The notes under the pieces are model-generated. The model saw only the letters and a program-made list of their open reading frames with translations, was not told the DNA's origin and did not search any database. Below, in pieces: positions 32,610-64,000 of a stretch of DNA of 64,000 bases; the first letter of the stretch is position 1, and the number at the start of each line of letters is the position of its first letter. The DNA comes from a virus: positions 1 through 64,000 of IMG/VR virus record IMGVR_UViG_3300001460_000016; one strand, 5' to 3'. The position numbers and the translations under genes were made by a program.

Positions 32610-34055
32610 TCACTGAGTTGCACCACTACCAGAGTTGATACCGTGAAGGTTATCAATTCTGAAGATACGGTAGTACTGGTTGAGGCGAGCACCGAGGTTC
32701 TCACCGTCGGCACCACCGGCCGTACCGGGAACGAATGGGTTAGAGACAAGACCGTAACGGGTCTTGAATCCGATCTTGGGCTGGAAGGTATTCTCACCAA
32801 CCGCACGAACCATCTGTAGTGGAACGTATGGGCAGTAGAAGAGTCCGGCGTCATACTGACTGGAACCCTTATAACCTACGACGCAGTAGTTGAAGTCGGC
32901 GTATGGGTCAATGTAGACCTTTAGGCGACCGTTGAGTGTACCGACAAAGGTGTTGCCTGTGTCGTCAACTTGGAGACTTCCGCCACCCATTGGGGTTGAC
33001 TGAAGTGATCCACTGAGTGCGAGTGCAGCAGCGACATCTGAAGAACAGATGACGATGTTACCCTTACCGCGTCGAGTTTGTCGTGCGACAAGGTTGGCTT
33101 CACGTTCGATTTGGAAGAGCAGACCACGGAAGCGTTCTGCGGACCATCGACCGTCTGAGTCGGAGAGGATATTGTAGACACCACCGATACCGCCGGCGAC
33201 ACCGAAGGATACTCCAGCAGCGGCCTTACCGTGGAGGTCAAGTTGCTGACAACCAAGTTTGGAAACCTTGAGAATGGTACGAACAACTTCTCGGTTGATT
33301 TCCGCGAGGATTTCAGTTGAGAGGATGTTAGCGAGTTCGGTCTCGGCATCAAGTCCGTGAACAGCACGGAGGTCTTGAGCGAGTTCAGTTGAGTATTCGG
33401 CCTTGAGGGCACGAGTCTTCGCCTGAACTGCGGTTCTCTCGATGGAGAATGCCATTTGCTGGAATGCACTGGCACCAGATCCGTCGAGTGCTTCAGCATT
33501 CGGAGTGGTGAGTCCACCGCTAACGAACCCGGTGATTGGATCACCCTGTGATGCTCCGGGCGCTGTTCCATCCAAGAAGACACTATCACTTGAGAGTGCT
33601 GGATCACCAGTTGTTAAACCACCAGCGTTTGTGGCGTAACCTGTACGAGCTTCGTCGAAGAGTGCTTCGTCACCACGAGCATCAGCTGCGGAAACGTAGT
33701 TGCTCTTCATTGCAAAGATAAGTCCGGTAGGACCAGTCATTGGCTGGACACCGCAGATATCATAAGCAATTAGGTTTGGCATGGAACGACGAACCAGTGA
33801 GATAAGCACTGGGTCGAAGGACTGAACATTCCCTTGACTGTGTGCGTTGTTACCAATACCATTAACCATACCAAGCTGCATACCGCTGTTTGGAACGGCT
33901 TCAGAGAGGTACTGTTCTTGGTTCTCAAGAAGAACGGCTGTGACATTCTTCTTGTATGAATCGGTAATTGTTGGCAGTTCTGGATGTTCCAGAATTGGTT
34001 GCCATTTTGATTTTACTTGCTCAGCGAGCGAAGCAGTTTGATCGTAGTTAGACAT
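32610..34055 (-). CDS. 23: Major capsid protein gp23
   Basis: TAVLLENQE, FDPVLISLVRRSMPNL, GVQPMTGPTGLIFAM, RALKAEYS.ELAQDL.AVHGLDAE.EL, YCPYVPL and FQPKIGFKTRYG. Confidence 0.99.
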   Translation of the reverse strand: MSNYDQTASLAEQVKSKWQPILEHPELPTITDSYKKNVTAVLLENQEQYLSEAVPNSGMQLGMVNGIGNNAHSQGNVQSFDPVLISLVRRSMPNLIAYDICGVQPMTGPTGLIFAMKSNYVSAADARGDEALFDEARTGYATNAGGLTTGDPALSSDSVFLDGTAPGASQGDPITGFVSGGLTTPNAEALDGSGASAFQQMAFSIERTAVQAKTRALKAEYSTELAQDLRAVHGLDAETELANILSTEILAEINREVVRTILKVSKLGCQQLDLHGKAAAGVSFGVAGGIGGVYNILSDSDGRWSAERFRGLLFQIEREANLVARQTRRGKGNIVICSSDVAAALALSGSLQSTPMGGGSLQVDDTGNTFVGTLNGRLKVYIDPYADFNYCVVGYKGSSQYDAGLFYCPYVPLQMVRAVGENTFQPKIGFKTRYGLVSNPFVPGTAGGADGENLGARLNQYYRIFRIDNLHGINSGSGATQ

Positions 34056-34078
34056 CTAAAATCTCCTTTTGATTTAGA

Positions 34079-35215
34079 TTATTTTCTTGTTTGACGTGAA
34101 ATTGCTTGGGCGTAGTAACTCATTGGACCAGTTGTTTCCTGAATGGAAGTTGGTTCCTCTGAATCTGATTCTTCTGTGATAAAGGTAACTTCATCCGAAG
34201 CGTTTGACTTGGTGAAGTAACCTTCTTTAAGAACTGCGAGTTTATCTGCGAATTGTTCGGCGTTATCAAAGTCAATGCCTTCTGCGAGTGAACGAAGTTT
34301 TTCGACATCAGTGTCTACTAGATCTTCGGTCATTTCGGTAAAGACACCTTCGACGTGAAGGCCTTCCATTTCGTTTCTCATTTCCATGTTTCGTTCAATC
34401 TCTTCGTTGAGTTTGGCGGTGAGGTCTTCGAGTTCCTCGGCCATACCTTCAACGACATCGAATTTCTCTTCAGGAATATCAATGTAGTGATTGGCGAATA
34501 CACCGCGAAGATCTTCCATGAATGACTCAGCGACTTCAGCACGAATGCCTCGTTCGACTGCGAGTTCATTATCCTTCATCCAGTTCTCAACGACATATCC
34601 TAGATAGTCATCAAGTTCTTTAGTAAGGTTTTCTTCAATCTCTGCGGCTGTTTCCATAAGTCGTTCGTTGTAGTTCTCTTCGAGAGCTTCAGCGTATGTT
34701 CCTAATGAATCATTAATAGCAGCTTCGAAGATTACAGTTGCCTTCTCCTTGAAGTCTTCTGTTAGTTCTTCGCCTGCGAAAAGAGCATCCATGTGTTCTT
34801 TCATATGAGGCTTCTCGATTTTGGGAGAAGCAGCAGATGATTTAGCACTGATTGATTTCTTGTTTGTTTTATCTTTGCCCTCAGTTCCGGCCTCAGTACC
34901 AATGACTGGACCCTTACCTGTGGCATCGAATGCGGACTTACCGGTGGCGTCTTTCTCGACAGCGGCGCCTTTTTCTCCGGCCATTGATGGTTTCTTAGGC
35001 TTCATTTCGGGTGACTCCTCTTCTAAGTTGTCTTGATCCTCTTCGTCCTCGTCGAATTCCTCATAATCATTATCTTCGAGAGTGATAAATTCATCATTCT
35101 CGTCTTCTTCGATCGCAAGGCCTTCGACCAGTTCCGAAGCTTCGTCTTCTTTACGGTGTTTCTCGGCAAGAATGTTTCTTGCTGCCTCGATTGGGCTTAG
35201 GCTATCTGAACTCAT
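34079..35215 (-). CDS. 22: Prohead scaffolding (core) protein gp22
   Basis: L.EDFK.KA.VIFEAA, YL.YVVE.WM.DN.LAVE.G, L..VF..HYID.P and M..YA.AI. Confidence 0.95.
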   Translation of the reverse strand: MSSDSLSPIEAARNILAEKHRKEDEASELVEGLAIEEDENDEFITLEDNDYEEFDEDEEDQDNLEEESPEMKPKKPSMAGEKGAAVEKDATGKSAFDATGKGPVIGTEAGTEGKDKTNKKSISAKSSAASPKIEKPHMKEHMDALFAGEELTEDFKEKATVIFEAAINDSLGTYAEALEENYNERLMETAAEIEENLTKELDDYLGYVVENWMKDNELAVERGIRAEVAESFMEDLRGVFANHYIDIPEEKFDVVEGMAEELEDLTAKLNEEIERNMEMRNEMEGLHVEGVFTEMTEDLVDTDVEKLRSLAEGIDFDNAEQFADKLAVLKEGYFTKSNASDEVTFITEESDSEEPTSIQETTGPMSYYAQAISRQTRK

Positions 35216-35248
35216 TTAAGGACTCCTTTTGTTACCTTACAGTAGTAG

Positions 35249-35256
35249 TATTTAGT
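35249..35256 (-). promoter_or_regulatory. Late promoter ACTAAATA (gp22-gp23)
   Basis: Intergenic; same 15-mer context as the gp18 promoter. Confidence 0.7.
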
Positions 35257-35260
35257 AAAA

Positions 35261-35905: not shown

Positions 35906-35928
35906 AGTTCTTCTTTCTTGATGTTATG

Positions 35929-36342: not shown

Positions 36343-36367
36343 TTTAAGTCTCCTTAGAGTTCTTGTA

Positions 36368-36375: not shown

Positions 36376-36386
36376 AAAACGTGTTT

Positions 36387-38680: not shown

Positions 38681-39184
38681 TTAACCTCCGAAATTTGGAT
38701 CTGTTATGGTGGGAGATATAATGAATTTACCGGATATTAGTTTTTCTGCGAGAGCATCACCCGTGGTTCCACTTGATATTCCTCGATCATCGTATAGAAA
38801 AAGATCAAACATTGATGATCCAGATGCAAGTTGTGTGGATATTTCTTTAGAAAAAGATAGTGAAATTTGACCGGTTACTCCACTACTAGTGGCACCTTCT
38901 CCTGTATCACTATAGACGTACTCACCGTTTAAAGAAATATGTCCGGCGGTGGCACCCTTATTTGGTGATATAGATCCTGTTACACCATATGTGTTTGTAG
39001 TTGAAAATCGTAACTTTAGTGTATCATTGTTAGTATCGAGTTCGTATCTTTGTCCTCTAACATCCATCCTTGCCCAATAACCATAACTAAGATCAATAGG
39101 AACACCTGAATCATCATAATAGTTTATGTTGAGGACAAAGTTGGTTCCCTGTTCGTGTGAAATGTCGTAATTTGCTGAAGCCAT
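38681..39184 (-). CDS. Small beta-sandwich virion protein, paralog of 3403..3852
   Basis: YDISHEQGTNF...PIDL..YWARMDVR...FDLFL...KLISGKFIISPTIT aligns by eye with 3403..3852. Confidence 0.6.
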   Translation of the reverse strand: MASANYDISHEQGTNFVLNINYYDDSGVPIDLSYGYWARMDVRGQRYELDTNNDTLKLRFSTTNTYGVTGSISPNKGATAGHISLNGEYVYSDTGEGATSSGVTGQISLSFSKEISTQLASGSSMFDLFLYDDRGISSGTTGDALAEKLISGKFIISPTITDPNFGG

Positions 39185-39187
39185 TTA

Positions 39188-40750
39188 CTACTCCTGATTG
39201 TCTTGATCTGCATTAATATCTATGTCGCCACTTTTCTCTTCTGCTCGAATTTGTGTTTCCATATCTTTAATTTCTTCTTCGGTCTGACGAAGAACATTCT
39301 TGCGAACAAAATCTCTTGAATAGTAAGTACCAATAAACTCTTCCATTTGTTGTAGGATCTCAAGTCGTTCTTTCATCATTTCAGCATTTTTCAATTCTGT
39401 GAAGTAAGAATCACGGATATAATCGAAACGAATATCCTGTTCTAGAGCCCTCCACTCTTCTTCTCGCATAATACCCTTGAGAATAACTTGAGTCTTAAGA
39501 AGATTAATAAACAGTTGAGAGAAAGCAGAACGTAACTTGTCTACGAATTTGGAGAACTTAAGTTCATCTCTTGTGATCTCTGATGCTCTGCCCATATTAA
39601 AACCACTGTCCGGTTCAAGTCGAGTAACAGGAACATTGAGGGCTCTGTAGAGTTTCTTCTTGAAGTATTCTACATCTTCCATCTCGCCTAGATTCTGACC
39701 ACCGTCCAATGTACTTATCTCGGTTCCTCTACCACCTTCTCGTCGAGGCAACCAGAAGTCTTCAAGCATTGTCATGTGCTTCTTGTCATCTTTGAGTTCA
39801 CCTGTAGACGCATCATAAACTAATTTGTTTCTATACTTGTTCATAATCTCTCGAAGATACTGTTCTGCTTTGGTCTTCGGTAATGAACCAACGTCAATAT
39901 AAAAGATTCTTCGTTCGGGAGCTCTAGAGATACGGTAGATTACTACAGCATCTTCGATCATCCTAAGTTGGTTGAGTGGTTTGATTGCCTTCTGAAGATA
40001 ACCAGTTACTCGTTTGTTTTCGAAGTCATACATTCCAGATGGAACATAACATATTGCTTCCTTTGCAATCTTAATACCATCAATACCTTGGTTATTTACC
40101 ACAGACATACCGCCGCCACCGTAACGATCCATGTATGCTTTATCATAATAAATGTAAAAGTCCTCGACTTTAGTTACGATAGGAACCTGCGTCGATGGGT
40201 CTTTTACCTTATCAATTTTCTTAATCTTTTTAATCTTTACCGCATCAACTGCACGAAGTTCCTTGATACCCTTTTTGGTAGCAGCAGGATCTACGATGAT
40301 GTGATAATACAATCGACCATCGATATACCATCGCCTGAAGATTTCATAACCCTTGTTTGCAAAATTCAGTAACCGAAGAACCGTATTAAACTCTTCGGTC
40401 ACTTTATCCTTGATTGTATCTGTTAGATTAGACTGATCAAGTCTAAGTTTTACGGCGGGATAATCCAACTCATAAACGATAGCTTCGTTTAGAATATCTT
40501 CCATTGCCATTTCAATTTCAGCATGAGCTGTCATTGAACGATACTTAATTATCATCTCAGCATCATTACGAACTGCACCATCTAGATCTAGATACTGTCC
40601 GTAATGTCCACCGCCACCAACAACAGTAGACCCATCATCGACCTCTGGTGGGACAAATGATGGGTTTACTAGTGTACCATCGGGTTGGATGATGGAACTA
40701 TCTAAATCTTTATTGTTTTTCCCGAATGAGAAACCAAATAGGTTCGGCAT
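39188..40750 (-). CDS. 20: Portal vertex protein gp20
   Basis: FRRWYIDGR, AIKP.NQLRMIEDA.VIYR.SRAPERRIFYIDVG, EDFWLPRREGGRGTEI and ITRDELKF.KF. Confidence 0.99.
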   Translation of the reverse strand: MPNLFGFSFGKNNKDLDSSIIQPDGTLVNPSFVPPEVDDGSTVVGGGGHYGQYLDLDGAVRNDAEMIIKYRSMTAHAEIEMAMEDILNEAIVYELDYPAVKLRLDQSNLTDTIKDKVTEEFNTVLRLLNFANKGYEIFRRWYIDGRLYYHIIVDPAATKKGIKELRAVDAVKIKKIKKIDKVKDPSTQVPIVTKVEDFYIYYDKAYMDRYGGGGMSVVNNQGIDGIKIAKEAICYVPSGMYDFENKRVTGYLQKAIKPLNQLRMIEDAVVIYRISRAPERRIFYIDVGSLPKTKAEQYLREIMNKYRNKLVYDASTGELKDDKKHMTMLEDFWLPRREGGRGTEISTLDGGQNLGEMEDVEYFKKKLYRALNVPVTRLEPDSGFNMGRASEITRDELKFSKFVDKLRSAFSQLFINLLKTQVILKGIMREEEWRALEQDIRFDYIRDSYFTELKNAEMMKERLEILQQMEEFIGTYYSRDFVRKNVLRQTEEEIKDMETQIRAEEKSGDIDINADQDNQE

Positions 40751-40775
40751 ATCACTTCCTTCATGTTAAAATATA

Positions 40776-41363
40776 TCAAAGACCGGCGTTGTTGACATCA
40801 ATGTTGGGACCATCAGTAAACGGTTGATGTGTCCAGTACTGGTACTGCCAAGTAACGGAGAACTCTGATAAGGCACCTTCTGCATCATTGGAGAGATCGA
40901 TTGCACTGATGTCTGATGGCCAACAGTCTTGGAGTACCCAAGGTTGTCCGATGATTTCTCCTGCCATATTCAGTTGACGAATTTCAACAATACCAAACAG
41001 TGTGCTTGGATCTTGTTGACCTACGTTTGAAGCAAACCCCTTCATGGAGTTTGCCCATTGTTCAAAGAATCCACGAATCTGCATCTCTTGATCGTTATAA
41101 ACGGTCATTGTCCATGGTTCGAATGTTCTCTCACCAATTGTCTTGAATCGGGTTCCACGGAATGGAACTTCGATTGGTGCAATAGTAGAGGCTGGGATTT
41201 GACCAGCTCTCACAAGAACAGAAAGGTTCTGTCCGTTGTCACCGAACGGCAGGGCAGGAACATTAATTCCTGAAGCCGTTCTGTTAACGGTGATTTGGAA
41301 GAGATTACTTCTTACACCACCCTTAAGAACTTGTTTAATCTGATCGACTTTTAATGAGGGCAT
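40776..41363 (-). CDS. 19: Tail tube protein gp19
   Basis: GG.RSNLF, A.QIPAS....EVPFRG...K..G.RTF.PWT.TV.ND and WPS.I.AIDL. Confidence 0.95.
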   Translation of the reverse strand: MPSLKVDQIKQVLKGGVRSNLFQITVNRTASGINVPALPFGDNGQNLSVLVRAGQIPASTIAPIEVPFRGTRFKTIGERTFEPWTMTVYNDQEMQIRGFFEQWANSMKGFASNVGQQDPSTLFGIVEIRQLNMAGEIIGQPWVLQDCWPSDISAIDLSNDAEGALSEFSVTWQYQYWTHQPFTDGPNIDVNNAGL

Positions 41364-43241: not shown

Positions 43242-43280
43242 TGTGCTCTCCTTTGTGAGAATATCTCAATATAGTCATGA

Positions 43281-43288
43281 TATTTAGT
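43281..43288 (-). promoter_or_regulatory. Late promoter ACTAAATA (gp18)
   Basis: Intergenic, upstream of an AAGGAG SD. Confidence 0.7.
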
Positions 43289-43300
43289 AAAATCAGTTTT

Positions 43301-45355
<2,055 letters not shown>

Positions 45356-45359
<4 letters not shown>

Positions 45360-46261
45360 ACAGTTTCTCCTCCTCCATCTATCACATCACCAGTTCCAGA
45401 TCCAACCGGGTTATTAAACTGGTATTCCGTTTGTGTAAACGTATAAGGTGGTATGGCAGATGGATCCGTTTGAGAACCATCAATAAAGATTCCAGTACCA
45501 CCTGATATTCCAATATCAATTCTTGCCACCGCTCCAGTTGCTCCGCAGAGTCCTGCGACCTGTCCTGAAGTCAATCCATCCCCGAGATCAAACAAAGTAG
45601 ACTTTGTGTATATAATTGTTTTGTCTCTTCTGACTGGTCCATAAAGATAACTCTTTACATTAAATGTTAATGTCCAGTTCAGTAATCTTCTAGTTTCCAT
45701 TTCGCCGAGAAAATCATAATCTAGGTTTACGCCTTCTAGAACAATAGGCAAGTCAATCTTGGTATTGATGTCCGATGTTCCGCCCGCCGTCTGAAAAGTT
45801 ACGTTAAATTCTGGAGTGAAGTATGGAACAATCTGTTCTACAATCTGTAATCCATCTTCAAACGTAGACGCATAAACACCGAGTTCAAATCCCATGTTAT
45901 ATGGTACTTCGGCATACTGATATGATAATTGTCCTTGCGTATTTTCAATATCCTTTACCCGGCGGCGGTGAATAGTATTCCTCTTTCGACTCGCATCATA
46001 ATTCAAAGATGTCATATTAAAAGACATTCTAGGTAGAGTCATCTGAACATGAGCGTTTGGATACTCGTCGTCATTCAAACGACTATCTTCTTTGAGTCGT
46101 TGAATATATTTTTCCCTTGCAGCATAAGCGAGTGGGACTTGAATACTTACTCGTTCAGTACCATCGGCGTTTAACTTCTGTACCTTGATATTATCGAACA
46201 ACGTACCGAAAGCTACAACGGTATTTCTTATCGTCTCATGGTAGAAATGTGATTTAAACAT
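45356..46261 (-). CDS. 15: Tail sheath stabiliser / completion protein gp15
   Basis: FYHE.IR..VVAFGTLF, VPLAYA..EK, LPRMSF and QIVEQI.PYFTP. Confidence 0.95.
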
Positions 46262-50532: not shown

Positions 50533-50756
50533 TAATTATTTCCTCTAGTCAGTAATGTCTGTAACATGGATTTGATTTCACTCATTTCATGTTGCAAAGA
50601 ATTTTGTTGCTCTTGTAGTTTTGTAATCTGATCTTTATCTTCACTTTTTTGCTTGTAAGCAAGAAGCGCTTCTTTATTTTGAGAAAGAACTGCGCCAGAT
50701 TTTAGATCTCTGACCAAATCTTTTCTACCTTCAATATTTAGGAATCCTGAACTCAT
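50532..50756 (-). CDS. Small coiled-coil protein following the VrlC-like gene
   Basis: IEG..DLVRD..SGAVL...EMSEIKSMLQ.LL pattern seen at this position in marine T4-like phages. Confidence 0.7.
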   Translation of the reverse strand: MSSGFLNIEGRKDLVRDLKSGAVLSQNKEALLAYKQKSEDKDQITKLQEQQNSLQHEMSEIKSMLQTLLTRGNN

Positions 50757-53700: not shown

Positions 53701-56700
53701 ATTCTAAACCATTATTTGAGATGTACAATCTACCATTCTGGTAAAGATTATCTCGTTGTCCGTTGTCCAGTGAGAATAAGTTAAATACATCGGCGGTTGC
53801 TGAAATACCTCCATCGAAGGCAGAAACGAATGAGTAGATATCATTATTCGATAATTCGAAGTATTTCAATCCAGTGGCTGATGTTTTAATATCACCTGTT
53901 GCGAGTGTGGTTGAAACTTCTTTTAGTTTCTTGAATCTAATTGGACTTGTGGTAATACTTTCACCCGGATTTACATCCAACATGGCAATAAGATCAAACT
54001 TGGTAGTATCTGGATATGTCCCAGTACCACCGCCAGTGTTCTTGGTTACAGTTAATTTGCCTAGGTCACCGAAATCTGTGTTGTTGGTTCTAAGTGTAAA
54101 GGCATCTGAGAACAGATCCATAATCTTACCATTATTATCTACCATGATATAGTTGTTTAGATCAGTTCCATCTACTACACCACCAGAAACTCCACCTCCT
54201 ACGAATCGAATATTAGAATTTCCGGAAGAAGCCTCGGCAGATAGATCACTAGGATTATCAAAGGTTATTGGGAATGACTTGATTACTCTGTAGTCAAGAG
54301 AATTAATTGTCTTGACCACATCTCCTACTGGAACTGGGAAAACTAACTTGTTCTGATCAGGATTGAATACCTTACCAATATAAGTTGGATGAACATCAAA
54401 CAGTTTACCGCCGGCGGATTGAACTAATCCAGCTCTGTTTGTTTGTTTTGCGAATCCATAAAAAGCTGAGTTCATTTCATTTAGGAAGAACTTAACACCG
54501 GATCTCTTGTTGCCCATATTCACATCAAAGAGTGAAACTTGTTGAGCGTCATTTGATTGTTCTTGAATTTGCCTAATTCTTGCTGTACCAATAGTAACTG
54601 GAACCTGCGTTGTAGTATATTGATCCATAGAAGAACCAGCAGTACCAAGGAATCCATTGAAGTATGCACCGTTTAGTCCATAAGAATTCTGAACGGTCGT
54701 GACTTTACCTGTTGGACTTGGAACAAATCCAGTTACACCAGATGATACCGAGAGAGTTCCTTCTAAAATTGGTTTTGCATTTGCACCAACCTCGAAAGAA
54801 GCACCATTAGTTGAATCTAACTCAATGAGAAGTGTTGTGTCTTGAACGTCAGCAGAATTTCCTGAGTTCCTTGCCGTGAAATTTACCACCGTACCAGTTG
54901 CGTATTTGGTTGGTTGTGATCCCGGAACATTCTGAGTAACTTTCTCACCGACCGAATAGAATCGACCGGGAACAAAATTACTCTTGGACTGTAGAAGTTG
55001 AGTTCCTGTTTCACCTTCAGTATATGAACCAAAACCATTGAAATTAGCAGTTGTAATATTATAAGGTCCAGCCACATCAACGATATTACTAAAGTTTTCT
55101 GAAACGTCACTATTTGAATTTATACCATTTCCACCATATCCAACGAAAGCCATATCACATGATGTATCTCTAAGACCATATATATAACCAAGATCGCGTT
55201 GGAATCCTTGGAAACCTGTGCAGATTTCTAATAGGAGTCTGTTTTGACTATTATCCCAACTGATTACGTTACCCTTATTGATTATGTTTGGGTCACCAAT
55301 ATAATTATTATAATCAATTCTCGAATTGTCCCAGTCATTATATGTAAACTGAACGACTAGTTGTCCGTGCTTATACGAAGTAGAAACAGTTCCACTGTCA
55401 ATCAATCCCGACGCAGTTTGATTGTCAACCGCAGCTGATCCGGCATTGAAGTCTGCATCAACTTTACCTTCGTCCTGAAGTACATTTAGATATCCATCAC
55501 CAACAATACCGGGATCGTCTGATTCGAATCTGATCTCTTGTACTGACATGTCAGCAGTAAAACCTGGCCTCAATCCATAATGGAATTGGTAATCTACGGT
55601 TGCTCCACTTGAAGGAGCAGAAGTGGAAACTAAGTCTATAAGACCATTAAATCCAACGGTACAACCAGCTCCGAAACAACCATCACATGTATTACCAAAT
55701 GCGTAGTTAGGAAGAACTCCGGGATAGGAAAGACTACTAAAACCACAAGATGCTGCAAAGTTTACACCTGATACCTGTTCGGCATAAAGAATAGGACCAT
55801 TTACAGTTAGTACCCAACCAACAACTTCAGCTATTGCTTCTGACAAATTATTTGGATCAGTGTAAGCATATCCACCACCAGAAGCACCGAGTGTAAAACC
55901 TCCGGCCGCCGGACTTCCGGTTGCTCCATATTGGAATTGTCTCACTACATCACCAATTGCAAAGTTAGATGCAGAGTTGTAACCATTCTGACCAGTAACA
56001 TAAGCATCCGCAACTGGAAATGCGTATATATTTTTATTAATGATGGAGTTGATACTAGACCCATATGAAACTGGACTGCAACTTTGAGTTGAACCACTAA
56101 TTCCAGCCCAACCCTGTTGAATAACACCACCGGATTTCTCAAACCCTCCGGTCCCTGCTGATTGTAGAATCATCGAACTGCCAGATCTAAAGGTAACAGA
56201 CTCCGCTGGAACCCATCGTCTAGCAACACCACCAGCTCTAACGTAAGCATTTGGTCCGTTTCCTGCACCAAGATCGCCGTCAATATTACCCATAAAAACC
56301 TGTCGAACAAACGAACAAGTAGCACCGGGAGTTCCTATTTGACCTTTAAAGGAAGCATACTCATTTAAATTGGGTGCAATTCCTCGACCTATATTGTAGT
56401 TTACACCACTTCTATAATTCTGCCGAAAAGTTATTTTTTGTAGAAAACGGTCTGCACTTGCACCGGGAGAATTTGCACCGGAACTAACATAACCACCTTG
56501 ATTGTCAATTGCAGTCGGCAGATAATATGCGGATGATGCGGATCCCACAATTAAAGACGTATCTGATGATTCCATAGTAGCGGAAGCAAAATTATCGATA
56601 ACAAGAGCACTATCGAATGAACCGTCATGTTCTGTGGCAAACAAAGGAGCCCAATATCTAATGGTAGCTGTTCCTGCTTCATTGGCCCTATATGGAATGT

Positions 56701-58360
56701 TGACTTGAATGAACTTACCTTTAAGATCTACTTTGGGTAAATTGTTATATTCAAAGGGGCCATCTGTTCCTAATATAGAAACACCAGAATCGAATGGGTA
56801 ACTGTCAAATCTATTTCCAGAATATTTGATTGCTACATCATTGACGGGGAGTGCATCTGTCTCTGCAACGATAAAATTGCCTAAATTAGCATTTAGATTA
56901 GCACCAATTAAAGACTCGTCTGTTCTTGCTCTGTCCGAAGAGATATTTGTTTTAGATTGTGTTTCAAATTCATAACCAAAAACATAAGCCTTACCGGGAT
57001 TTATGGATACGGCCAACTTAGATGCAGTACCACCTTGTTCTGTACTGTAAATACCTGTCGAATCTGGCAAGAACGATATTGCGCTTACAGTTCCGGTAGC
57101 TGGATCTGGACTTCCATTGTTGGTCATGCTGATACCAGTTGCAAATCTCCCAGAATCCATGTCTACGATTAATCTCTGTGCGGTAGAACCGATGAAGTTT
57201 GTTCGATCTAATACATTGAGAACCTCAGCAGTAACACCATTATTGCTAACATTATCTCCAATACCAAAAGTTGCCGCGGCCGAACTTAGGGTAACATCTA
57301 CTTGATACTTGTCAATTCTAAGATTGTTTAGAATAGTAGCATTGAATGGTGTAACGGTATAGTTACCAGATTCGTCGAATGTTCTTCTTGCAAGTGTCTT
57401 TTCTAATTCAGCATATTGTGTCTTGCTATATCGTTTAGTAATCTTACCGTTTTCAACTCGAAGGACATCTACGAAGTCTTCGTCAATAAATTCAGACGGA
57501 GTATTCGTGGTAATGTTCAGAACCTTGGAACTGAAAACAGGATCTACTTGATACCGATCGGCACCGGGTGCAGAGTAGTTATAAGAACCCTTGGCAGGAT
57601 CGACAAGAGTAGGATCGTCGATGTTGTCAATAATCTTCTTGTTAATTTGAAGACCGACTCGGTTGGTTGGGAATTGATAAAGACGAACGCCCGCTGATGC
57701 ACCTGCCGCAGTTCCTTCTTCACCAGAAGATGGACTTTCAATTTGATTGGCTGTCGATAATCTAAAAGGTAAATTAGTTTGTGGGTTGATGTAAACGAAG
57801 AAACCGTCAACGTAGAACACACCAGTATCGATGGAACATGCCAGTGCATCGCCTGTTGGTGCAACTAAATCGGATGTTGTTGATTTTACTGCAAAGTTTA
57901 TATTCTGAGTTTCACTGTAAATTTGATCACCCAGACCGAATGAATCAGCAGCAGTTCCACCACCACTTAAATATTGAAGAAACACAACGGGGAAAGTATC
58001 TACACCAGTAGAGAGAGGAGCTTCTGTTGAAATTACTCTCGCTCGTAGATTTGATTTATCACCTGTACCAGTTAAGAAGTCACCGGCAATAAGAGCTCTG
58101 TTTGCTTCACTTAAACCTGTGGTGCGAACATAACCTACGTTCTTTTCTGTCAGACCAGAACCGAGAACCGGAGTTCCGTTCTTAAAGACATGATCTCCAA
58201 AACGCTCAATCTGTGTTTGAAGGGCGGTTTGGAGTTGAGTGAGTTCTCTTGCTTGAACGGCGAATCCTGGCTTGAAAAGAATCTTAAGATAATTCTTTGT
58301 CTTGTCAAAATCGTCGTAGTATGGATCTCCCGATGTTAATTCAGGGTCATATGAAGGCAT
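50753..58360 (-). CDS. Large VrlC/DUF4815-like baseplate or virion structural protein
   Basis: PYYDDFD..KNY.KILFKPG.AVQARELTQLQ, APGADR, LARRTFDESG.Y, RFTMRDIG.LE.RI..IEYY, RFKNG..VD.F and final PRVKDLRTIALA. Confidence 0.88.
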   Translation of the reverse strand: MPSYDPELTSGDPYYDDFDKTKNYLKILFKPGFAVQARELTQLQTALQTQIERFGDHVFKNGTPVLGSGLTEKNVGYVRTTGLSEANRALIAGDFLTGTGDKSNLRARVISTEAPLSTGVDTFPVVFLQYLSGGGTAADSFGLGDQIYSETQNINFAVKSTTSDLVAPTGDALACSIDTGVFYVDGFFVYINPQTNLPFRLSTANQIESPSSGEEGTAAGASAGVRLYQFPTNRVGLQINKKIIDNIDDPTLVDPAKGSYNYSAPGADRYQVDPVFSSKVLNITTNTPSEFIDEDFVDVLRVENGKITKRYSKTQYAELEKTLARRTFDESGNYTVTPFNATILNNLRIDKYQVDVTLSSAAATFGIGDNVSNNGVTAEVLNVLDRTNFIGSTAQRLIVDMDSGRFATGISMTNNGSPDPATGTVSAISFLPDSTGIYSTEQGGTASKLAVSINPGKAYVFGYEFETQSKTNISSDRARTDESLIGANLNANLGNFIVAETDALPVNDVAIKYSGNRFDSYPFDSGVSILGTDGPFEYNNLPKVDLKGKFIQVNIPYRANEAGTATIRYWAPLFATEHDGSFDSALVIDNFASATMESSDTSLIVGSASSAYYLPTAIDNQGGYVSSGANSPGASADRFLQKITFRQNYRSGVNYNIGRGIAPNLNEYASFKGQIGTPGATCSFVRQVFMGNIDGDLGAGNGPNAYVRAGGVARRWVPAESVTFRSGSSMILQSAGTGGFEKSGGVIQQGWAGISGSTQSCSPVSYGSSINSIINKNIYAFPVADAYVTGQNGYNSASNFAIGDVVRQFQYGATGSPAAGGFTLGASGGGYAYTDPNNLSEAIAEVVGWVLTVNGPILYAEQVSGVNFAASCGFSSLSYPGVLPNYAFGNTCDGCFGAGCTVGFNGLIDLVSTSAPSSGATVDYQFHYGLRPGFTADMSVQEIRFESDDPGIVGDGYLNVLQDEGKVDADFNAGSAAVDNQTASGLIDSGTVSTSYKHGQLVVQFTYNDWDNSRIDYNNYIGDPNIINKGNVISWDNSQNRLLLEICTGFQGFQRDLGYIYGLRDTSCDMAFVGYGGNGINSNSDVSENFSNIVDVAGPYNITTANFNGFGSYTEGETGTQLLQSKSNFVPGRFYSVGEKVTQNVPGSQPTKYATGTVVNFTARNSGNSADVQDTTLLIELDSTNGASFEVGANAKPILEGTLSVSSGVTGFVPSPTGKVTTVQNSYGLNGAYFNGFLGTAGSSMDQYTTTQVPVTIGTARIRQIQEQSNDAQQVSLFDVNMGNKRSGVKFFLNEMNSAFYGFAKQTNRAGLVQSAGGKLFDVHPTYIGKVFNPDQNKLVFPVPVGDVVKTINSLDYRVIKSFPITFDNPSDLSAEASSGNSNIRFVGGGVSGGVVDGTDLNNYIMVDNNGKIMDLFSDAFTLRTNNTDFGDLGKLTVTKNTGGGTGTYPDTTKFDLIAMLDVNPGESITTSPIRFKKLKEVSTTLATGDIKTSATGLKYFELSNNDIYSFVSAFDGGISATADVFNLFSLDNGQRDNLYQNGRLYISNNGLESAGTVADVKDKKANLAGPISVVYRYFEHSGIGPFVSESYINDSPASGEIKFTFDDIPEYTSPDSGEVINLNKVIDFRPTFNGTSFDAVFLPASGQSFNISYSYFLPRIDKLVLTRDKEFKVIQGVPALEPTTPDKVVDAMELYKFYIPAYTYKSTDVISKFIENKRFTMRDIGRLERRIQQIEYYSTLSLLERQTESLFIKDENGNDRFKNGIIVDQFSGHNIGDVKNEDYNVAMDFENQELRSPFTSRSVDFNVKTLNSLHKTSDNLVMLPFTSESLNTQPLSTSTVNLNPFTVTNWLGRAKLTPPSDNWYDDTQNPDVLVNIEGENDAWKVLGSKAFGTQWNDWKTNWVGSESMSDTILNKNAKGISRTTDVTSSRQLRTGIETRMVPERIVKEIGSMFVDLSVVPFVRSKSIAITATNLRPNTKVHAFFDGANVDEHCTFISGSNTYRLTEADLITDSTGSIPSSVSLTFNIPTGQFRVGEKLFRLTDSATNVVSAANTSAEMIYPVEGLVDTREDITITTRKPNLIRKSVNEERIITDTDTDLFVNESSPTNPVSQTFFVSPSEYPNGVYVDKVSIYFKSKSSTLPVTLQLRPTSNGYPSSSIVYPFAEVVKNASEVNITESPDVASVGSATTFTFSSPVYLLPGEHAVSLKTNSDEYSTYIAVMGDKQIGTEIPVTEQPNLGSLFRSENAGKWEADTTADLMMQVSKCKFTSGGLNVLTLKEEKGSGGYTDEIKLDTGNLNAEVTNWPESRFDIKMRFTPNNPSNVSATSTEFAVTTNESFSFDSSRKINLNASDTNETLILNATISGTDDHVSPVFDLDQISLISVENIIEGAKDLTPGGSNNNGELDPQAKPVSTGSVPRARYISRQVNLADGFESKNIRVILNEYKPQNTDIQVFLKQQPAGEDAPFENEPYVQLTASTTGTFDGFREVEYNLPTDLTEAMGKFTIKVCMYADGAPLNTAVVPRVKDLRTIALA

Positions 58361-58374: not shown

Positions 58375-60843
58375 CTAAAAGTCAATTACGACTTTGATTT
58401 CTTCGTCTTGATCTGGATTTCTTTGCACTGGTCTTACGTTCTCTATGTATAACACTTGTCCGGTATTTCTGAGGAATTCCGGTATAGTTGTTCCTAGAAC
58501 TTCACCAGTAAAACCATTCAGTGAAATTACATTTCCTGCTGTCAGTGAACCAATTGTAGATGTTAGGAACATGTCTACGGTACTTCCGGCCGGTCCTGAA
58601 GTTGTTCCTGTTGCATAACCAAAACTTACTAGTGTAGAACTAAACTGGTTTGCGTTTGCGTTAACGGATAAGTCAAGAAGACTTGCACTAAGTTGGAATT
58701 GCGGACTAGTAAAGAACGACTGTACCTTAGTTGTAAGTCTATGTGACTCATCAATATTTACTGGTTGACTTTCAGTTTTGGTAATAGTTCCTACTGGAGA
58801 ATTGCTTAGTTGAACTGTGCCATCTTCTAATAGTGATCGGAAACCAAATACCTTTTCGCCATCTAGTTGAGTTCCGAGTGCAACGCGAGGAGCAATAAAC
58901 GAACCAACTTTATTCGTGAGTGTCATAGTTCCTCGTTCACCATCTGCATCAGCAACGAATCGAGTTACTTTGGCAGTAGAACCGGAGTCCATACCGTACA
59001 CAATAGATCCGATTGGGAATGATTCATTGACGAATGTCTTACTATGTGTTACGGAATCTACAAAACCACCGAAACTATTTCCGTCTCCGCCAAATGTGTA
59101 ACCGGTTCCTGTTGTTTCTCCATAGAAAATTCTACCGGAGGTAACGGAACTTGGTCGTTCATCTGGAATTACACAAGCTCTAAATGACCCGTTATCTACA
59201 GACACGGTTAGTTTACCGGCGGTATCTGGAATCCAATTAGTCACTGTTCCTCTTGCCTGTGTTGTGCTGTATTCACCTTGATGAATCTTTTGTCCAACAA
59301 CAAATGCGTCTACTGGGTGAGTCATTCCCGGTGTTCCCACTGTATGGAAATCTATAACAGCAGTATTATTTTCGTTTCGTATTCTTACATCGGTAAAGTT
59401 CGGTGTTGCAGTTCCCGCAACGAATCCAGCAGTAACTCCCGCAGTCCATCCTGCAAGTTGTGGGTTCTTAATGATTGAGAATTTTCTAAAATCATTAAGA
59501 ACATCAAACGCTCCACCTTCCGAACCCTTCAACAGTGTTCGAATCATTACTTTGTTTGCACCTAATTCGTATGGGGCATTGGAACCATGTCCACCTAGTG
59601 GCGAACCAACTGCGGAAGCTTGGAATCCAATTCCAGCAGCAGTGGAACCTGATGGAGTCAACATCTGAATTGAGGGATCAGTAATACCGGATCCGGGATC
59701 AAGAACTCGAATGTCAGTTATTACCTTCGTAGTGTCTACAATACCATCGGTATCTCTAGGTATACTAACATCAGTAGAGAAAGAAATTCCCTGAAACACT
59801 GGATAGACAACAGCGTTCTGTTCAGATGTATTCCCAGTTCCACTTGCAACATAGATGTAAGGTACAATATTAAAATACGCCGGGGTACTGGAACTTGGTA
59901 CAAACGATGGGGTATTTTCAAACCTTGTAGTGAAAACATCTCCACCAGATGTTCCGAGAATTTTCTTATAGAAACCTATTTTAGTATAGGAAGTTGGATT
60001 ATTCGGTACATTATCTGTTCCCATATCAAGATCAGTTAGTGCCCAGTCTGTATACTGTCCGGCGGCATATGAATTGTTTACTGTCCATTTGCAAGCATCT
60101 ACGTCTCCGAGTGGAGTAGGGAATACTGATGTGTTATCCAAACCATAAACTGAATGCTTTATGTAGAATGTTCCATCAGAACTATTTCCCTTCCTCATTA
60201 TTTCTGATCCGGACCAGTAACTTCCAGAACGATCTAGTTTAACTCCGAATACTCCACCATTCGAGGCATTTTCCTGAACCTCTCGTTGAAGGTATTCGAT
60301 TGTTCCAATCTTGGTAGTGGAACCTGCAACCGAAACGGGAATATAATCGTCGGTGACAAAATCTAAATCTTCTTCTTTGAGTTGATACATGAACTGCCAA
60401 GAATAACCATCGGCACCGGGAGTTTGATAATCTGGATAAGTATGTGTTGGTTGAACTGTAGACGCAGTAGAACCTGCATTATTATCAAGACACTTATAGA
60501 CTCGATACTGTGGTGTCATTACATAGAACGGTTTTGATTCGTATGTCGCAGATCGAAAGATCTCATTCGTATCTGAGAATTGAGAATATGTTACTCCAGA
60601 TGTCCAGTCGTATCTTTTTGCTACGAGTCTCGCATCTTTACTTGTAATTTTCTTTGCAGCGATAGCAGAAGACCAAGAACTAAATTGGTTACTAGACGTA
60701 TCCATAGAAGTTGGTGGTGTGTTTTCGTTTGGCCATGTTTCTGGCCGAGAAATCATCAGAAAGAAAGAATCCGAGTCACTTGAAAAGTCATCAAGAAACG
60801 ATTCTGCTGCTGATACATTGAAAGAAAATTGCAAGTTGGACAT
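58375..60843 (-). CDS. 8: Baseplate wedge protein gp8 (expanded)
   Basis: RYDW.SG..Y, FYVM...YRVYKCLDN, DGYSW.FMY, SP.GGHG.NA..ELG and G.VLYIEN..P..R..DQ.E.IK.VI.F. Confidence 0.9.
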   Translation of the reverse strand: MSNLQFSFNVSAAESFLDDFSSDSDSFFLMISRPETWPNENTPPTSMDTSSNQFSSWSSAIAAKKITSKDARLVAKRYDWTSGVTYSQFSDTNEIFRSATYESKPFYVMTPQYRVYKCLDNNAGSTASTVQPTHTYPDYQTPGADGYSWQFMYQLKEEDLDFVTDDYIPVSVAGSTTKIGTIEYLQREVQENASNGGVFGVKLDRSGSYWSGSEIMRKGNSSDGTFYIKHSVYGLDNTSVFPTPLGDVDACKWTVNNSYAAGQYTDWALTDLDMGTDNVPNNPTSYTKIGFYKKILGTSGGDVFTTRFENTPSFVPSSSTPAYFNIVPYIYVASGTGNTSEQNAVVYPVFQGISFSTDVSIPRDTDGIVDTTKVITDIRVLDPGSGITDPSIQMLTPSGSTAAGIGFQASAVGSPLGGHGSNAPYELGANKVMIRTLLKGSEGGAFDVLNDFRKFSIIKNPQLAGWTAGVTAGFVAGTATPNFTDVRIRNENNTAVIDFHTVGTPGMTHPVDAFVVGQKIHQGEYSTTQARGTVTNWIPDTAGKLTVSVDNGSFRACVIPDERPSSVTSGRIFYGETTGTGYTFGGDGNSFGGFVDSVTHSKTFVNESFPIGSIVYGMDSGSTAKVTRFVADADGERGTMTLTNKVGSFIAPRVALGTQLDGEKVFGFRSLLEDGTVQLSNSPVGTITKTESQPVNIDESHRLTTKVQSFFTSPQFQLSASLLDLSVNANANQFSSTLVSFGYATGTTSGPAGSTVDMFLTSTIGSLTAGNVISLNGFTGEVLGTTIPEFLRNTGQVLYIENVRPVQRNPDQDEEIKVVIDF

Positions 60844-60859
60844 TTATTATTCCTTAGTT

Positions 60860-60867
60860 TATTTATA
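60860..60867 (-). promoter_or_regulatory. Late promoter TATAAATA (gp8)
   Basis: Exact consensus in a 24-nt intergenic gap. Confidence 0.75.
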
Positions 60868-62661
60868 CTACAAGTCTTGCCCGTAATTGTTCGGTACGTC
60901 TATAGAACCCTGTGTTCCCTGAGAACTATAACTGGATCCGGCCACGGGAGGTGAGGTTAATATGTATGGACCTAATATAAAGTCCTGCAATCTAATTGCA
61001 CCCCATGTCACACCATTACCATATGTTGACCTAACTCCTCCATGCCATGTGTTTGGATGTGGGTGAACAATCCACCAATCTATGTTGTTGGATGGCCATC
61101 CCGGCATGGTAGATCCGGTATACTCTCCGTCATCGAATTGACCAAAAAATTCTTGCGTAGCACCAATTCCACCAAACCTGCGAAAGTTTTGACTACTCCA
61201 CCCAGAAGAAATTCCAGCACCCAAATCAGAGGCCGCGGTTCTTGTGTTTCCTTGTATATCATATGAATTTGCCGTGTCATAACCATATGGAAAATAATCA
61301 ATAAGAAAACCATCTAGAATTGCACTACCCGCTAGATTATCTACAACCACTCCTCGCAAATCAAAATTCGAAGGCAACACACCAGTTGATGCTAATGATG
61401 ATGTACATGTGACTCCATTTGAATTATTACCTGCAAGAGCGATAGTATATGGAAAATAATTTGCAAATTGAGGCATCTCATCACGCAGTAGTCCAAACCC
61501 ACCAACATCTGCTGTTGCACTTTCCTTTCGGTATACAAAATAATCACCCAGTACAAGTTTACCACTTGGGTGTGCAAATTCTTTTAAGGTGTCTTTGTAT
61601 TCACTTAAATTTGCTTCTGTTCTTACCACATATGAATGAATCTGATATCGATAGTTATCTTGTAACTTTTCGGTAGAAGAAACCTTACCATCATTGTTGG
61701 TCCAGTATCCCGGTCTAGTTACTTTTGAATTTTTAATTACTGACAACCCACTTACACCTGTACCAGTTTTTGAATCTACTGTTACTGTGTATGCTACAGG
61801 AATTTCAACATAATTTAAACCGGGATCATCAATCCGAATGGATCTAATTGTTCCGGTTTTTGTTACTGACTCTACAGAAGCTTTGGCTCCTTTTCCAGAT
61901 AATCCAGAAGACGTTTTAATAATCACAAGATCATCAGGTTGGTAATTTAATCCGCCGTTAGAGAATGTTATTCCAGATATCATACTCAATAGAGCAGAAG
62001 AAAATTGAATTGGTTGATCAGGTCTAGAAACAACTTTTCCGGGATATGGTGTTGTTCCAATCACCGAGGTCAGTTCCAATTCTAGAATCGGAGTACCATC
62101 TTTCTTAAACTGATTTAAATCTACAATAGTAGCAGAACCTTGCTCGACTGAATTTGAATCAACAAACAGAACTCTCGTATTTCTAAGTGTTCTACTTCTT
62201 TCAGGATCTCCATCAATACATCTTACGATAGTTGGTTGAATCCATCGACCACCGGAAGCATTAAGTATATCAGTTGAAGGAATGTAAACTTCAGAATATA
62301 CATCAAACAAAGCTCTCAGTAAAAACCTAATGGATGATTCTGTACCCTTTGCTAGATAAAAAGATCGAACTCGTTTTAAGACCGATCTCATATCCAGAGT
62401 ATCTCCCTTTACGGAAGTGTAATTGTCTGGAAAACCTTTGAATACTTCACTCTTGAAATACTTCACGAAGTCATCAGTAGTCTGATCGATGTCAACCGTA
62501 CCAAGTAAACTCATTGGTGCGAAGTAAGAATTGTCCTGTGATTCTAACCACTTATAATATTCTTCGACAAACGTAACAAACAGAGGGTGGTCCTGAACAA
62601 CAAAGTCAGGAAGATTCTCTGAGACTACATCTGAAATTTTATTTCGTGGGTATCTTGGCAT
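60868..62661 (-). CDS. 7: Baseplate wedge subunit, gp7-like
   Basis: IS..V...LPDFV..DHP.FV.FV..YY.WLE, FY.AKGT..S..FL, LQD...YQ.HSYV and HP.G; lies between gp6 and gp8. Confidence 0.75.
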   Translation of the reverse strand: MPRYPRNKISDVVSENLPDFVVQDHPLFVTFVEEYYKWLESQDNSYFAPMSLLGTVDIDQTTDDFVKYFKSEVFKGFPDNYTSVKGDTLDMRSVLKRVRSFYLAKGTESSIRFLLRALFDVYSEVYIPSTDILNASGGRWIQPTIVRCIDGDPERSRTLRNTRVLFVDSNSVEQGSATIVDLNQFKKDGTPILELELTSVIGTTPYPGKVVSRPDQPIQFSSALLSMISGITFSNGGLNYQPDDLVIIKTSSGLSGKGAKASVESVTKTGTIRSIRIDDPGLNYVEIPVAYTVTVDSKTGTGVSGLSVIKNSKVTRPGYWTNNDGKVSSTEKLQDNYRYQIHSYVVRTEANLSEYKDTLKEFAHPSGKLVLGDYFVYRKESATADVGGFGLLRDEMPQFANYFPYTIALAGNNSNGVTCTSSLASTGVLPSNFDLRGVVVDNLAGSAILDGFLIDYFPYGYDTANSYDIQGNTRTAASDLGAGISSGWSSQNFRRFGGIGATQEFFGQFDDGEYTGSTMPGWPSNNIDWWIVHPHPNTWHGGVRSTYGNGVTWGAIRLQDFILGPYILTSPPVAGSSYSSQGTQGSIDVPNNYGQDL

Positions 62662-62669
62662 TTATTTTC

Positions 62670-64000
62670 TCAGGCAGGAGTATCGTTTGATAGACCCATG
62701 TTTATGGTAACTGAAGTTGTATCCGTTTCGTCAATAACAAGAATTTGATTTCTATTTACTTCTACATCGTTGTTTGTCGATGAAGCGTATACTCGAATAA
62801 AAGAATCGTTTGGAATACTCTGTACGTTTAGTTGTTTAATATCTATTTTACCAGTTGTATAATTTATAGTGCCGATATTAGTATCAGAAATTATTCTCTT
62901 ACCGGAAACGTCCAGTGTGTAAAGTTGAAGCGTACCCTTTGTATCATCTTGAATGTATGTGTTAACACCATTCACAACAAAGGCATTACTTTCAATACTA
63001 GATTTTCCTGTTACTTGTAAAACACCACCGGGAAATGTCACTGTATAATCTTTCGGCGTGCCGAAGAAATCTGTAGGATCAATTCTTTTTTCTATATCAA
63101 TTGTTAAATTGACAGAAACTATAGACGGATTGACGGCAATAATATTTTTAATTATAGTAGAACCTCGGAAATTTTCACCAAAGTCTTCTAACTGATTATC
63201 TGTATAGTCTTGTACTGATTGTCTGACTAATGATTTCACGGCAAGTGAAGAAAGTTCTGTGTATGCGTTATTGATTAACACATCAATAGTAGGCCTTACA
63301 TAACTATAATCGGCATCAACAAACTCAGGAATAATTCCCACGATGTTTTTTGTTTTAATGATGTTTGTGATAATATCATTCTTTTCCACATCAGAAAGTC
63401 CCACAGAGTTCTTGGTATTACCTACAACGAAAACTTTTCCATACTGTGGTGGGTCTGCATCTTCACCACCGTAAACTAAAACTGACTTTAACTGTTGAAA
63501 TCGTTTTAATATTTCAGTTCTATAATCTTCGGAGGTTACCAATCTATTCTGTGATTGAAAAGATCTCGGACCAATCTTCTTGGAGAAAGAAGACTGTTCT
63601 CTTTCACCACCACCTGTAGCTACATTTGACACTATCACTTCGAATGTTCCATTGTCACCACTGTGGGAGAACACTCTTGATCCTACCGCATCTCCGCCGC
63701 CGATACCGTTTGCGCTTTGACCTTTTGATCTAAGGTATTGAATAGAAATGATGTTTCCATCATCCGGCCTCTTTCCAATTACATTATCACCAAATTCTAT
63801 TTCGTAATATCGGTTCAATCCGATTTGAAGGAAATATGTTTCTGTGGTGTCACTGACATTTAAGATAGTGTCAGACTTAAACCACTCGTTGCTTGTTGTA
63901 CTGTCTTCTGTTTGAGAATCCTTAACAAACACTTTGAGGAATCGATTGTCAACACTCAATTCTGGAATCACATATCCACTCTCGTTTAATGAATCATAAA
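62670..64000 (-). CDS. 6: Baseplate wedge subunit gp6 (5'-partial)
   Basis: YEI.FGD...G, SQNR.VT..DY, GGED..PP.YGKV and GTINY.TG. The frame stays open to the window edge (YDSLNESGYVIPE). Confidence 0.92.
   Translation of the reverse strand, partial: YDSLNESGYVIPELSVDNRFLKVFVKDSQTEDSTTSNEWFKSDTILNVSDTTETYFLQIGLNRYYEIEFGDNVIGKRPDDGNIISIQYLRSKGQSANGIGGGDAVGSRVFSHSGDNGTFEVIVSNVATGGGEREQSSFSKKIGPRSFQSQNRLVTSEDYRTEILKRFQQLKSVLVYGGEDADPPQYGKVFVVGNTKNSVGLSDVEKNDIITNIIKTKNIVGIIPEFVDADYSYVRPTIDVLINNAYTELSSLAVKSLVRQSVQDYTDNQLEDFGENFRGSTIIKNIIAVNPSIVSVNLTIDIEKRIDPTDFFGTPKDYTVTFPGGVLQVTGKSSIESNAFVVNGVNTYIQDDTKGTLQLYTLDVSGKRIISDTNIGTINYTTGKIDIKQLNVQSIPNDSFIRVYASSTNNDVEVNRNQILVIDETDTTSVTINMGLSNDTPA

Follow-up and report, generated by a model that had tools for sequence, protein, structure and literature searches.

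The virion proteins of an uncultured T4-like myovirus carry a short word, G-x-[ST]-[GA], with Thr favoured over Ser at its third position, which is a real and order-specific feature, restricted to virion proteins, of a clade of phages that also encode the glycosyltransferase GT2-TPR. The window analysed here comprises 64,000 nucleotides (positions 1 to 64,000 of the IMG/VR virus record IMGVR_UViG_3300001460_000016) of a 77 kb contig; all of its genes lie on the minus strand, and the nearest isolates are about 55% identical in the major capsid protein gp23. We found no description of this feature in the literature searched. Our interpretation, which we hold at just short of an even chance, is that GT2-TPR may O-glycosylate the Thr and Ser residues of these sites. 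The feature was noticed at 32610-64000, hereafter the structural range, and the candidate enzyme is encoded outside it:

3915-5171, minus strand: GT2-TPR glycosyltransferase, 418 residues, the candidate enzyme (Pfam PF00535)

Collagen-like tracts of at least four triplets were masked in all counts of the four-residue word. Across the 16 virion proteins of the structural range, G.[ST][GA] occurs 58 times against 23.9 expected from shuffling (2.43-fold, z 7.1), and the excess persists when residues are shuffled only within 10-residue blocks (1.95-fold, z 5.4). The Thr form is the stronger (34 versus 11.2, 3.05-fold, z 6.9; block shuffles 2.34-fold, z 5.1), followed by the Ser form (24 versus 12.8, 1.88-fold, z 3.2; block shuffles 1.57-fold, z 2.5). 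Over the whole contig, virion-like open reading frames (ORFs) hold 71 sites versus 28.8 expected (z 8.3) and all other ORFs 14 versus 11.9. The order of the residues matters: ten rearrangements of the same residues reach 0.96- to 1.5-fold after local shuffling, and the target is the highest of the eleven orderings. An unbiased scan of about 1,500 gapped three-letter words in the virion proteins placed G.TA first (22 versus 5.5, P 1e-7) and G.TG third, and neither is among the top words of the non-virion proteins in the same scan. Taking all virion proteins of the window together, the 72 sites divide into 47 with Thr and 25 with Ser, are followed by Gly in 38 cases and Ala in 34, and have mostly Ala, Val or Ser at x. 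A repeat at the DNA level was considered as a cause and ruled out, as the 58 sites of the structural range are encoded by 57 distinct 12-nucleotide words.

The three-residue motif behaves differently. A first-pass annotation of the structural range, made by eye, had proposed that G-x-[ST] accumulates in virion proteins as an O-glycosylation acceptor signal would. Every string that it quoted is present in the protein named, and the raw density is as uneven as described, at 1.4-5.4 motifs per 100 residues in virion proteins against 0-0.9 in gp44-47, RNase H, gp55 and gp17. Measured against shuffled controls, however, the three-residue motif lies essentially at the level set by Gly, Thr and Ser composition. 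The z values protein by protein are 1.0 for gp23, 0.9 for gp18, 1.6 for gp15, 1.2 for gp14, 1.1 and 1.4 for the wedge proteins of 822 and 597 residues, and -0.7 for the VrlC-like protein; 12 core virion proteins pooled give 122 versus 108 expected (1.12-fold, z 1.4-1.6) and the 16 virion proteins of the structural range 173 versus 148.8 (1.16-fold, z 2.3), with non-virion proteins at 1.17-fold. G-x-Ser shows no excess in the core virion proteins (57 versus 56), and G-x-Thr, at 1.24-fold, falls inside the background of about 1.2- to 1.3-fold seen across 856 ORFs of relatives. The small three-residue excess is wholly due to motifs that have Gly or Ala as the next residue; G.[ST] followed by any other residue stands at 0.93-fold (115 versus 123.6, z -0.8; block shuffles 0.93-fold).

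Relatives are no poorer in the three-residue motif. Its density is the same in environmental orthologues from 34-88 relatives per gene, among which the window protein ranks 20 of 77 for gp23, 16 of 35 for gp18, 13 of 73 for gp14 and 28 of 65 for gp13, and gp15 alone ranks high (8 of 89). The terminase gp17 and UvsW families give G-x-[ST] ratios equal to or higher than those of virion families because the Walker-type GK[ST] fits the motif, and such family-pooled ratios mirror shared ancestry. In the gp17 family (window 43301-44929 and relatives) G-x-S alone stands at about 2.3-fold over composition across 45 relatives, and in the UvsW family G-x-T-[GA] stands at about 6-fold, both owing to conserved nucleotide-binding motifs. 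The clear three-residue outliers are proteins with collagen-like tracts, in which the top-ranking pairs (G-x-T, T-G and G-x-x-G) are those that Gly-X-Thr triplets produce. Composition plus collagen repeats was our reading of these three-residue shuffles, and we gave it up after the four-residue test. The methodological lesson is that a three-residue motif seen by eye was almost wholly composition, with information only in the sharper word.

Protein by protein, the sites of the four-residue word are distributed as follows:

32610-34055, minus strand: major capsid protein gp23, 481 residues, PHROG 138; 2 sites versus 1.6 expected, one of them a GPTG conserved family-wide
38681-39184, minus strand: 167-residue protein between the portal and prohead core genes; 4 sites, all Thr, versus 0.8 (z 3.8)
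39188-41363, minus strand: portal gp20 and tail tube gp19; zero sites in both
41412-43241, minus strand: tail sheath gp18, 609 residues, PHROG 23; 5 sites versus 1.8
45356-46261, minus strand: tail sheath stabiliser/terminator gp15, 301 residues, PHROG 227 over residues 1-218 only; 3 sites versus 0.6
46261-46914, minus strand: neck/head-closure protein gp14, 217 residues, PHROG 460; 3 sites versus 0.4
47989-50532, minus strand: fibre protein of 847 residues; 14 scattered sites versus 5.2, plus a nine-triplet collagen-like tract
50753-58360, minus strand: VrlC-like structural protein (DUF4815, Pfam PF16075), 2535 residues; 16 sites versus 6.5 (z 3.8)
58375-60843, minus strand: baseplate wedge protein, 822 residues, PHROG 438, called gp8 in the first-pass annotation; 7 sites versus 2.6
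60868-62661, minus strand: baseplate wedge protein, 597 residues, PHROG 17744, called gp7 in the first-pass annotation; 2 sites versus 1.4, not enriched alone

Within these proteins the sites keep to particular regions. Those of gp18, at residues 99, 166, 275, 294 and 309, all fall within its variable N-terminal and middle region, which we take to correspond to the outer domains of the sheath in T4. In gp15 they occupy a G/T-rich C-terminal extension (residues 240, 251 and 254), and in gp14 residues 163, 176 and 179; in all three proteins the site columns are less conserved than the protein average. Six of the seven sites of the 822-residue wedge protein are Thr (G.T[GA] 6 versus 1.3), and the VrlC-like protein is rich in the word with no enrichment of plain G-x-[ST] (38 versus 41.6). 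gp13 and the PAAR protein have zero sites and gp6 has one. The 167-residue protein is paralogous to a 149-residue protein (3403-3852; 27% identity, E 2e-9), and these two are the proteins most enriched in G-x-T-G, with 3 versus 0.2 expected each; the former lies in the head-gene block, the latter beside the collagen fibre genes.

The 847-residue fibre has no match in Pfam or PHROG, its nine-triplet tract being too short for the Pfam collagen model, and after masking it still holds 22 G.T against 10.2 expected. The tract (residues 97-123, window 50164-50244) has exactly nine triplets in 26 of 26 homologues, down to 42% identity, with X and Y residues that vary among them. A length so constant despite varying X and Y suggests a length-constrained triple-helical spacer.

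The word also separates genomes that encode GT2-TPR from genomes that do not. One pipeline (ORF calling, BLAST assignment of virion-like ORFs, masking and shuffling) was applied to whole contigs, and genomes were screened for GT2-TPR with profile and protein searches, to which the pipeline BLAST was added in the case of contigs G002-G005; the comparison covers carriers closer than those at 23-39% identity. In virion-like ORFs, the ratio of observed to expected G.T[GA] is 3.31 for the window and 4.19, 4.43, 2.27, 3.00 and 2.51 for the other carriers (G038, G039, G040, G041 and G042). Large contigs without GT2-TPR give 1.17 (G002), 1.25 (G003), 0.98 (G004) and 1.11 (G005), and complete isolates without it 1.57 (S-BM3), 1.04 (T4-type RB55), 0.80 (C48C1) and 1.73 (DLP_6). 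The six carriers are thus completely separated from the eight non-carriers (exact rank test, p 0.0003). An apparent excess in the carriers' other ORFs is due to a few large Gly-rich, fibre-like ORFs, and without these the ratio is 0.66-1.30.

Split by protein family, the contrast is seen in gp18, gp15 and gp14. Observed against expected sites are 26/12.6 in carriers and 8/12.0 in genomes without GT2-TPR for gp18, 16/3.0 and 1/2.0 for gp15, and 12/3.3 and 2/2.3 for gp14. The gp13, gp19 and gp20 families have zero sites in carriers and non-carriers alike. For gp23 the figures are 17/8.6 and 25/9.2, so the capsid, which the first-pass annotation had listed first among its examples, is no richer than in relatives without the enzyme. 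Two further observations concern this protein. Its C-terminus in the window (32610-32642) bears a 10-residue HGINSGSGATQ tail past the usual ...NL[ML] end; we considered this tail as an acceptor of the mycobacteriophage kind and rejected it, since it lacks the G-x-[ST]-[GA] word and relatives often end in a comparable way (‘HG...’ tails of 3-12 residues in about 25 of 79 related gp23 proteins). In contig G039, the gp23 match at 43159-44535 has one in-frame TAA stop, either an assembly error or a real interruption.

Of the 81 site columns in aligned orthologues, 74 occur in just one of the clade's four deep lineages, a count that is approximate because the alignment is imprecise in variable regions. 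The sites therefore appear not to be simply inherited; each lineage has a 2- to 4-fold excess at positions of its own.

The candidate enzyme has a glycosyltransferase domain of the GT2 family (PF00535, 56.2 bits against a cut-off of 23.3). Its AlphaFold 2 (AF2) model, with a mean predicted local distance difference test score (pLDDT) of 91, has a GT-A fold at residues 1-170 and paired helices at 182-357 (pLDDT about 90), followed by a long terminal helix. In Foldseek the model matches the ThuS/SunS peptide glycosyltransferases over its full length (E 8e-17, template modelling score about 0.6), and it also aligns with a designed TPR protein; the Pfam TPR_2 match is below its cut-off (20.3 versus 27). 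By sequence the best solved match is GmaR (E 4.6e-12), the Listeria flagellin O-linked N-acetylglucosamine (O-GlcNAc) transferase (PMC9638930), and SunS is matched as well. Homologues are widespread: about 45 near-full-length matches at 47-64% identity occur in uncultured phages, and bacterial homologues are common in Streptomyces, Mycobacterium, Bacillus (31-34% identity), Chlamydiae and Polyangiaceae. Candidate phage carriers from beyond the present clade include the jumbo phage Tunturi_5, huge-phage records and loci L244-L290.

GT2-TPR ends a large carbohydrate locus and stands close to collagen-like genes. A 13-kb sugar-nucleotide/glycosyltransferase cluster lies downstream of regA, and its last gene is this GT2 enzyme with a helical C-terminal half; the gene for the 149-residue protein follows, and then two genes for collagen-like fibres. 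The 653-residue fibre gene, two genes away from GT2-TPR, encodes 13 G-X-T triplets in a row as well as a second tract, and nowhere is the motif packed more densely.

5141-17411, minus strand: sugar cluster; Pfam matches to a WecB epimerase, SDR epimerases, a cytidylyltransferase, a PfkB kinase, a C-methyltransferase, GT4, a DegT aminotransferase, a formyltransferase, GT2 and a GT32-like gene
1445-3406, minus strand: collagen-like fibre protein, 653 residues (Pfam PF01391, 58.3 bits), outside the structural range

The neighbourhood recurs elsewhere. Of 33 viral loci, 16 (24 by a looser rule) have a Thr-rich collagen-like tract of at least six triplets directly downstream of GT2-TPR and on its strand, and of 80 bacterial loci, 33 have a Thr-rich collagen-like tract no more than 5 kb away; among 158 control loci centred on gp23 or gp15, one has such a tract (Fisher p 2e-13). 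The two-gene module of GT2-TPR and a (G-X-T)n collagen was seen in Streptomyces, Bacillus, Flagellimonas, Polyangiaceae, Chlamydiae, Methylococcus, Cupriavidus and Paraburkholderia (loci L363-L442) and in uncultured phages (L213-L252), and some of the tracts beside the enzyme exceed 100 triplets.

A characterised pair of this kind exists. SgtA of Clostridioides difficile is a GT-A plus TPR enzyme whose gene adjoins bclA3, and it transfers O-GlcNAc in vitro onto Thr, and also Ser, of GPT repeats (PMC7157674). As judged from its published description, SgtA resembles GT2-TPR in its N-terminal GT-A/GT2 domain and in the TPR-type repeats of its C-terminal part, and in both cases the gene stands beside a collagen-like gene with Gly-X-Thr repeats. 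In the SgtA-BclA3 system, itself related to BclA glycosylation of the Bacillus exosporium, the acceptor is Thr with Ser tolerated and the substrate fibre decorates the particle exterior; here these properties are predictions. Every Thr in a GPT repeat reads G-x-T-G, and the four-residue word is one Gly-X-Thr unit read into the next residue. The differences are that the present enzyme belongs to a T4-like phage with a large sugar-nucleotide cluster alongside it, that single copies of the word are also dispersed over non-collagen virion proteins, and that Ala as well as Gly is found at +1. The connection to a G-X-T collagen unit beside the enzyme, drawn in the first-pass annotation, is strengthened by the gene pairing in phages and bacteria and by the SgtA precedent.

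GmaR and SunS/ThuS, the closest solved relatives, likewise join a GT-A domain to one of helical repeats, and they attach sugar to a protein or peptide in the cytoplasm. What they modify is flagellin or a small bacteriocin peptide instead of a collagen-like repeat; identity to GT2-TPR in structural alignment is 15-18%, and GmaR has an extra antirepressor domain. Among phages, mycobacteriophages modify their own structural proteins with their own glycosyltransferases (Freeman et al. 2023, as cited in PMC12619734). The glycans of mycobacteriophages are carried by extensions at the C-termini of capsid and tail tube subunits, whereas here gp23 and gp19 are unenriched and the candidate sites belong to sheath, neck, baseplate and fibre proteins. 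Host group and enzyme family also differ, and the mycobacteriophage system involves no defined four-residue word.

Taken together, these observations lead us to envision the following process. GT2-TPR, acting in the cytoplasm, would O-glycosylate Thr and less often Ser in Gly-x-(Thr>Ser)-(Gly/Ala) units, densely on the collagen tracts of fibres and in scattered fashion in flexible, variable parts of the sheath gp18, gp15, gp14, the wedge proteins, the VrlC-like protein and the fibres, and both the sugar and its extension into a longer glycan would come from the adjacent sugar-nucleotide cluster. The tube, the portal, gp13 and the capsid lattice would stay unmodified. A sugar coat on the particle is plausible on these grounds; the action of the enzyme on the sites, the identity of the sugar, the surface exposure of the sites and a function such as shielding or adhesion are what we infer. 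From the idea of an acceptor signal in the first-pass annotation, we thus retain G-x-(T>S)-(G/A), order-specific, confined to virion proteins and found only in the GT2-TPR clade, and let go of both the plain G-x-[ST] form and the capsid.

More tentatively still, an uncultured aquatic clade of T4-like phages may decorate the sheath outer domains, neck, baseplate and fibres by means of a collagen-type GT2-TPR and phage-made sugars, leaving capsid lattice, tube and portal bare, with a sequon G-x-T/S-G/A derived from the collagen unit and rewritten at new positions in each lineage. In the papers found, mycobacteriophages are the only tailed phages for which virion glycosylation is established, and the glycosyltransferases that marine T4-like phages encode are usually taken to modify DNA or host lipopolysaccharide (LPS). 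Should our interpretation hold, an acceptor word with a dedicated enzyme would make glycosylation of phage particles predictable from sequence and would account for the large sugar islands of these phages.

A number of observations weigh against this interpretation. It rests on sequence, gene context, a fold model and analogy, and is chemically unproven. The four-residue word was a pre-set hypothesis tested on this genome, not one derived blind. The capsid gp23, the most exposed protein, is not enriched. At +1, Ala matches Gly in frequency (34 versus 38 sites), whereas known SgtA substrates have Gly. Among orthologues 60-98% identical, sites of the motif are retained in 70% of cases and control words in 64% (p 0.19), and variable-loop sites in gp23 and gp18 are freely lost in close relatives with the same enzyme. 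The AF2 model of the 847-residue fibre has a mean pLDDT of 33 and is unusable for placing sites on turns or strands. To these belong the placement of all six carriers in one clade of the gp23 tree (support 100/98), the mild excess of S-BM3 (1.57-fold) and DLP_6 (1.73-fold) without the enzyme, a G-x-T excess of 3.5- and 1.7-fold in T4 gp36 and gp37, and the literature reading of pelagimyophage glycosyltransferases as host LPS modifiers (PMC7029224).

The clade structure limits what the genome comparison can carry. In the test for co-variation of the motif with the transferase across T4-like genomes, which the first-pass annotation had suggested, six genomes separate completely from eight; six carriers in a single gp23 clade nevertheless make the co-occurrence one event, not six, with no independent replicate, and it could be plain co-inheritance. 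The lineage-private positions of most sites offset this weakness in part. No lineage lacking GT2-TPR was found inside the carrier clade. A GT2 match was found in 0 of 27 further contigs of relatives, these being only 10-27% complete, and contig fragments with distant homologues of the 847-residue fibre are too short to judge the presence of GT2-TPR.

The most serious alternative, in our view a distinct if lesser possibility, is that the word reflects a structural or compositional habit of the clade: loops and insertions of small residues with a collagen- or turn-like micro-pattern, inherited and regenerated without modification, while GT2-TPR acts only on true collagen fibres or on some other target such as host surface molecules. 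Such a habit would fit the single clade of carriers, the sites' being conserved no better than control words, the 1.6- to 1.7-fold levels of S-BM3 and DLP_6, and the LPS reading of the pelagimyophage enzymes. It would also fit the general G-x-T level of about 1.2-fold across the 856 ORFs of relatives, and the excess in T4 gp36 and gp37 together with the T4-type genome RB55, which has no match to GT2-TPR or to the GT families searched. Permuted small-residue words are mildly raised too, at 1.2- to 1.8-fold on global shuffles, and Gly, Ala, Ser and Thr therefore cluster locally. The excess, however, outlasts the 10-residue shuffles (z 5.4), with the target highest of the eleven orderings; the four-residue word itself shows no excess in T4, at 1.04- to 1.18-fold. 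The word moreover turns up in proteins whose folds are unrelated (sheath, neck, wedge, VrlC and fibres), its excess is missing from those folds in the eight other genomes, and Ala at +1 misfits a degenerate collagen repeat.

We consider it unlikely that the sites mark a different modification or enzyme, that is, another transferase of the 13-kb cluster or a non-sugar modification of Ser/Thr. The window does hold at least four further glycosyltransferase-like genes, of which the GT4 is weakly like the SdgA adhesin O-glycosyltransferase (NCBIfam E 6.5e-6), and the Ser sites are enriched as well (G.S[GA] 24 versus 12.8). The SdgA match, however, is far under the family threshold, the nearest solved relatives of GT2-TPR all glycosylate peptides or proteins, and across the 113 loci it is GT2-TPR that pairs with G-X-T collagen genes, GT2-TPR being the only enzyme tracked over the compared contigs. 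That nothing is there beyond Gly/Ser/Thr-rich composition and selective reading by eye holds for the three-residue motif, which at 1.12- to 1.16-fold equals non-virion proteins and relatives' orthologues, is unenriched as G.S in core proteins and is equalled or surpassed through Walker-type GK[ST] in the gp17 and UvsW families, but is highly improbable for the four-residue word, given its z of 7.1 globally and 5.4 locally, its place at the top of about 1,500 words (P 1e-7) and the lack of its excess in both the non-virion proteins and the eight comparison genomes.

The remaining layout of the window follows from PHROG and Pfam matches. The structural range runs from gp23, gp22 and gp21 through a three-gene insert that includes the 167-residue protein, and also encodes the portal gp20, tube gp19, sheath gp18, terminase gp17/16, gp15, gp14, gp13 and the PAAR protein; the 847-residue fibre, the 2535-residue VrlC/DUF4815 protein, the wedge proteins of 822 and 597 residues and gp6 make up the rest. 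At the other end of the window, a 481-residue fibre protein (3-1445) contains an internal duplication, with two near-identical cassettes (AGxTLxGSTLGID...GISSDGGITAGG and TYVHAGTGISLDAGGITFPDGTHQ) around divergent cores. A 383-residue gene (18274-19425) between the clamp-loader genes gp44 and gp62 has a Pfam match to DruA (Druantia).

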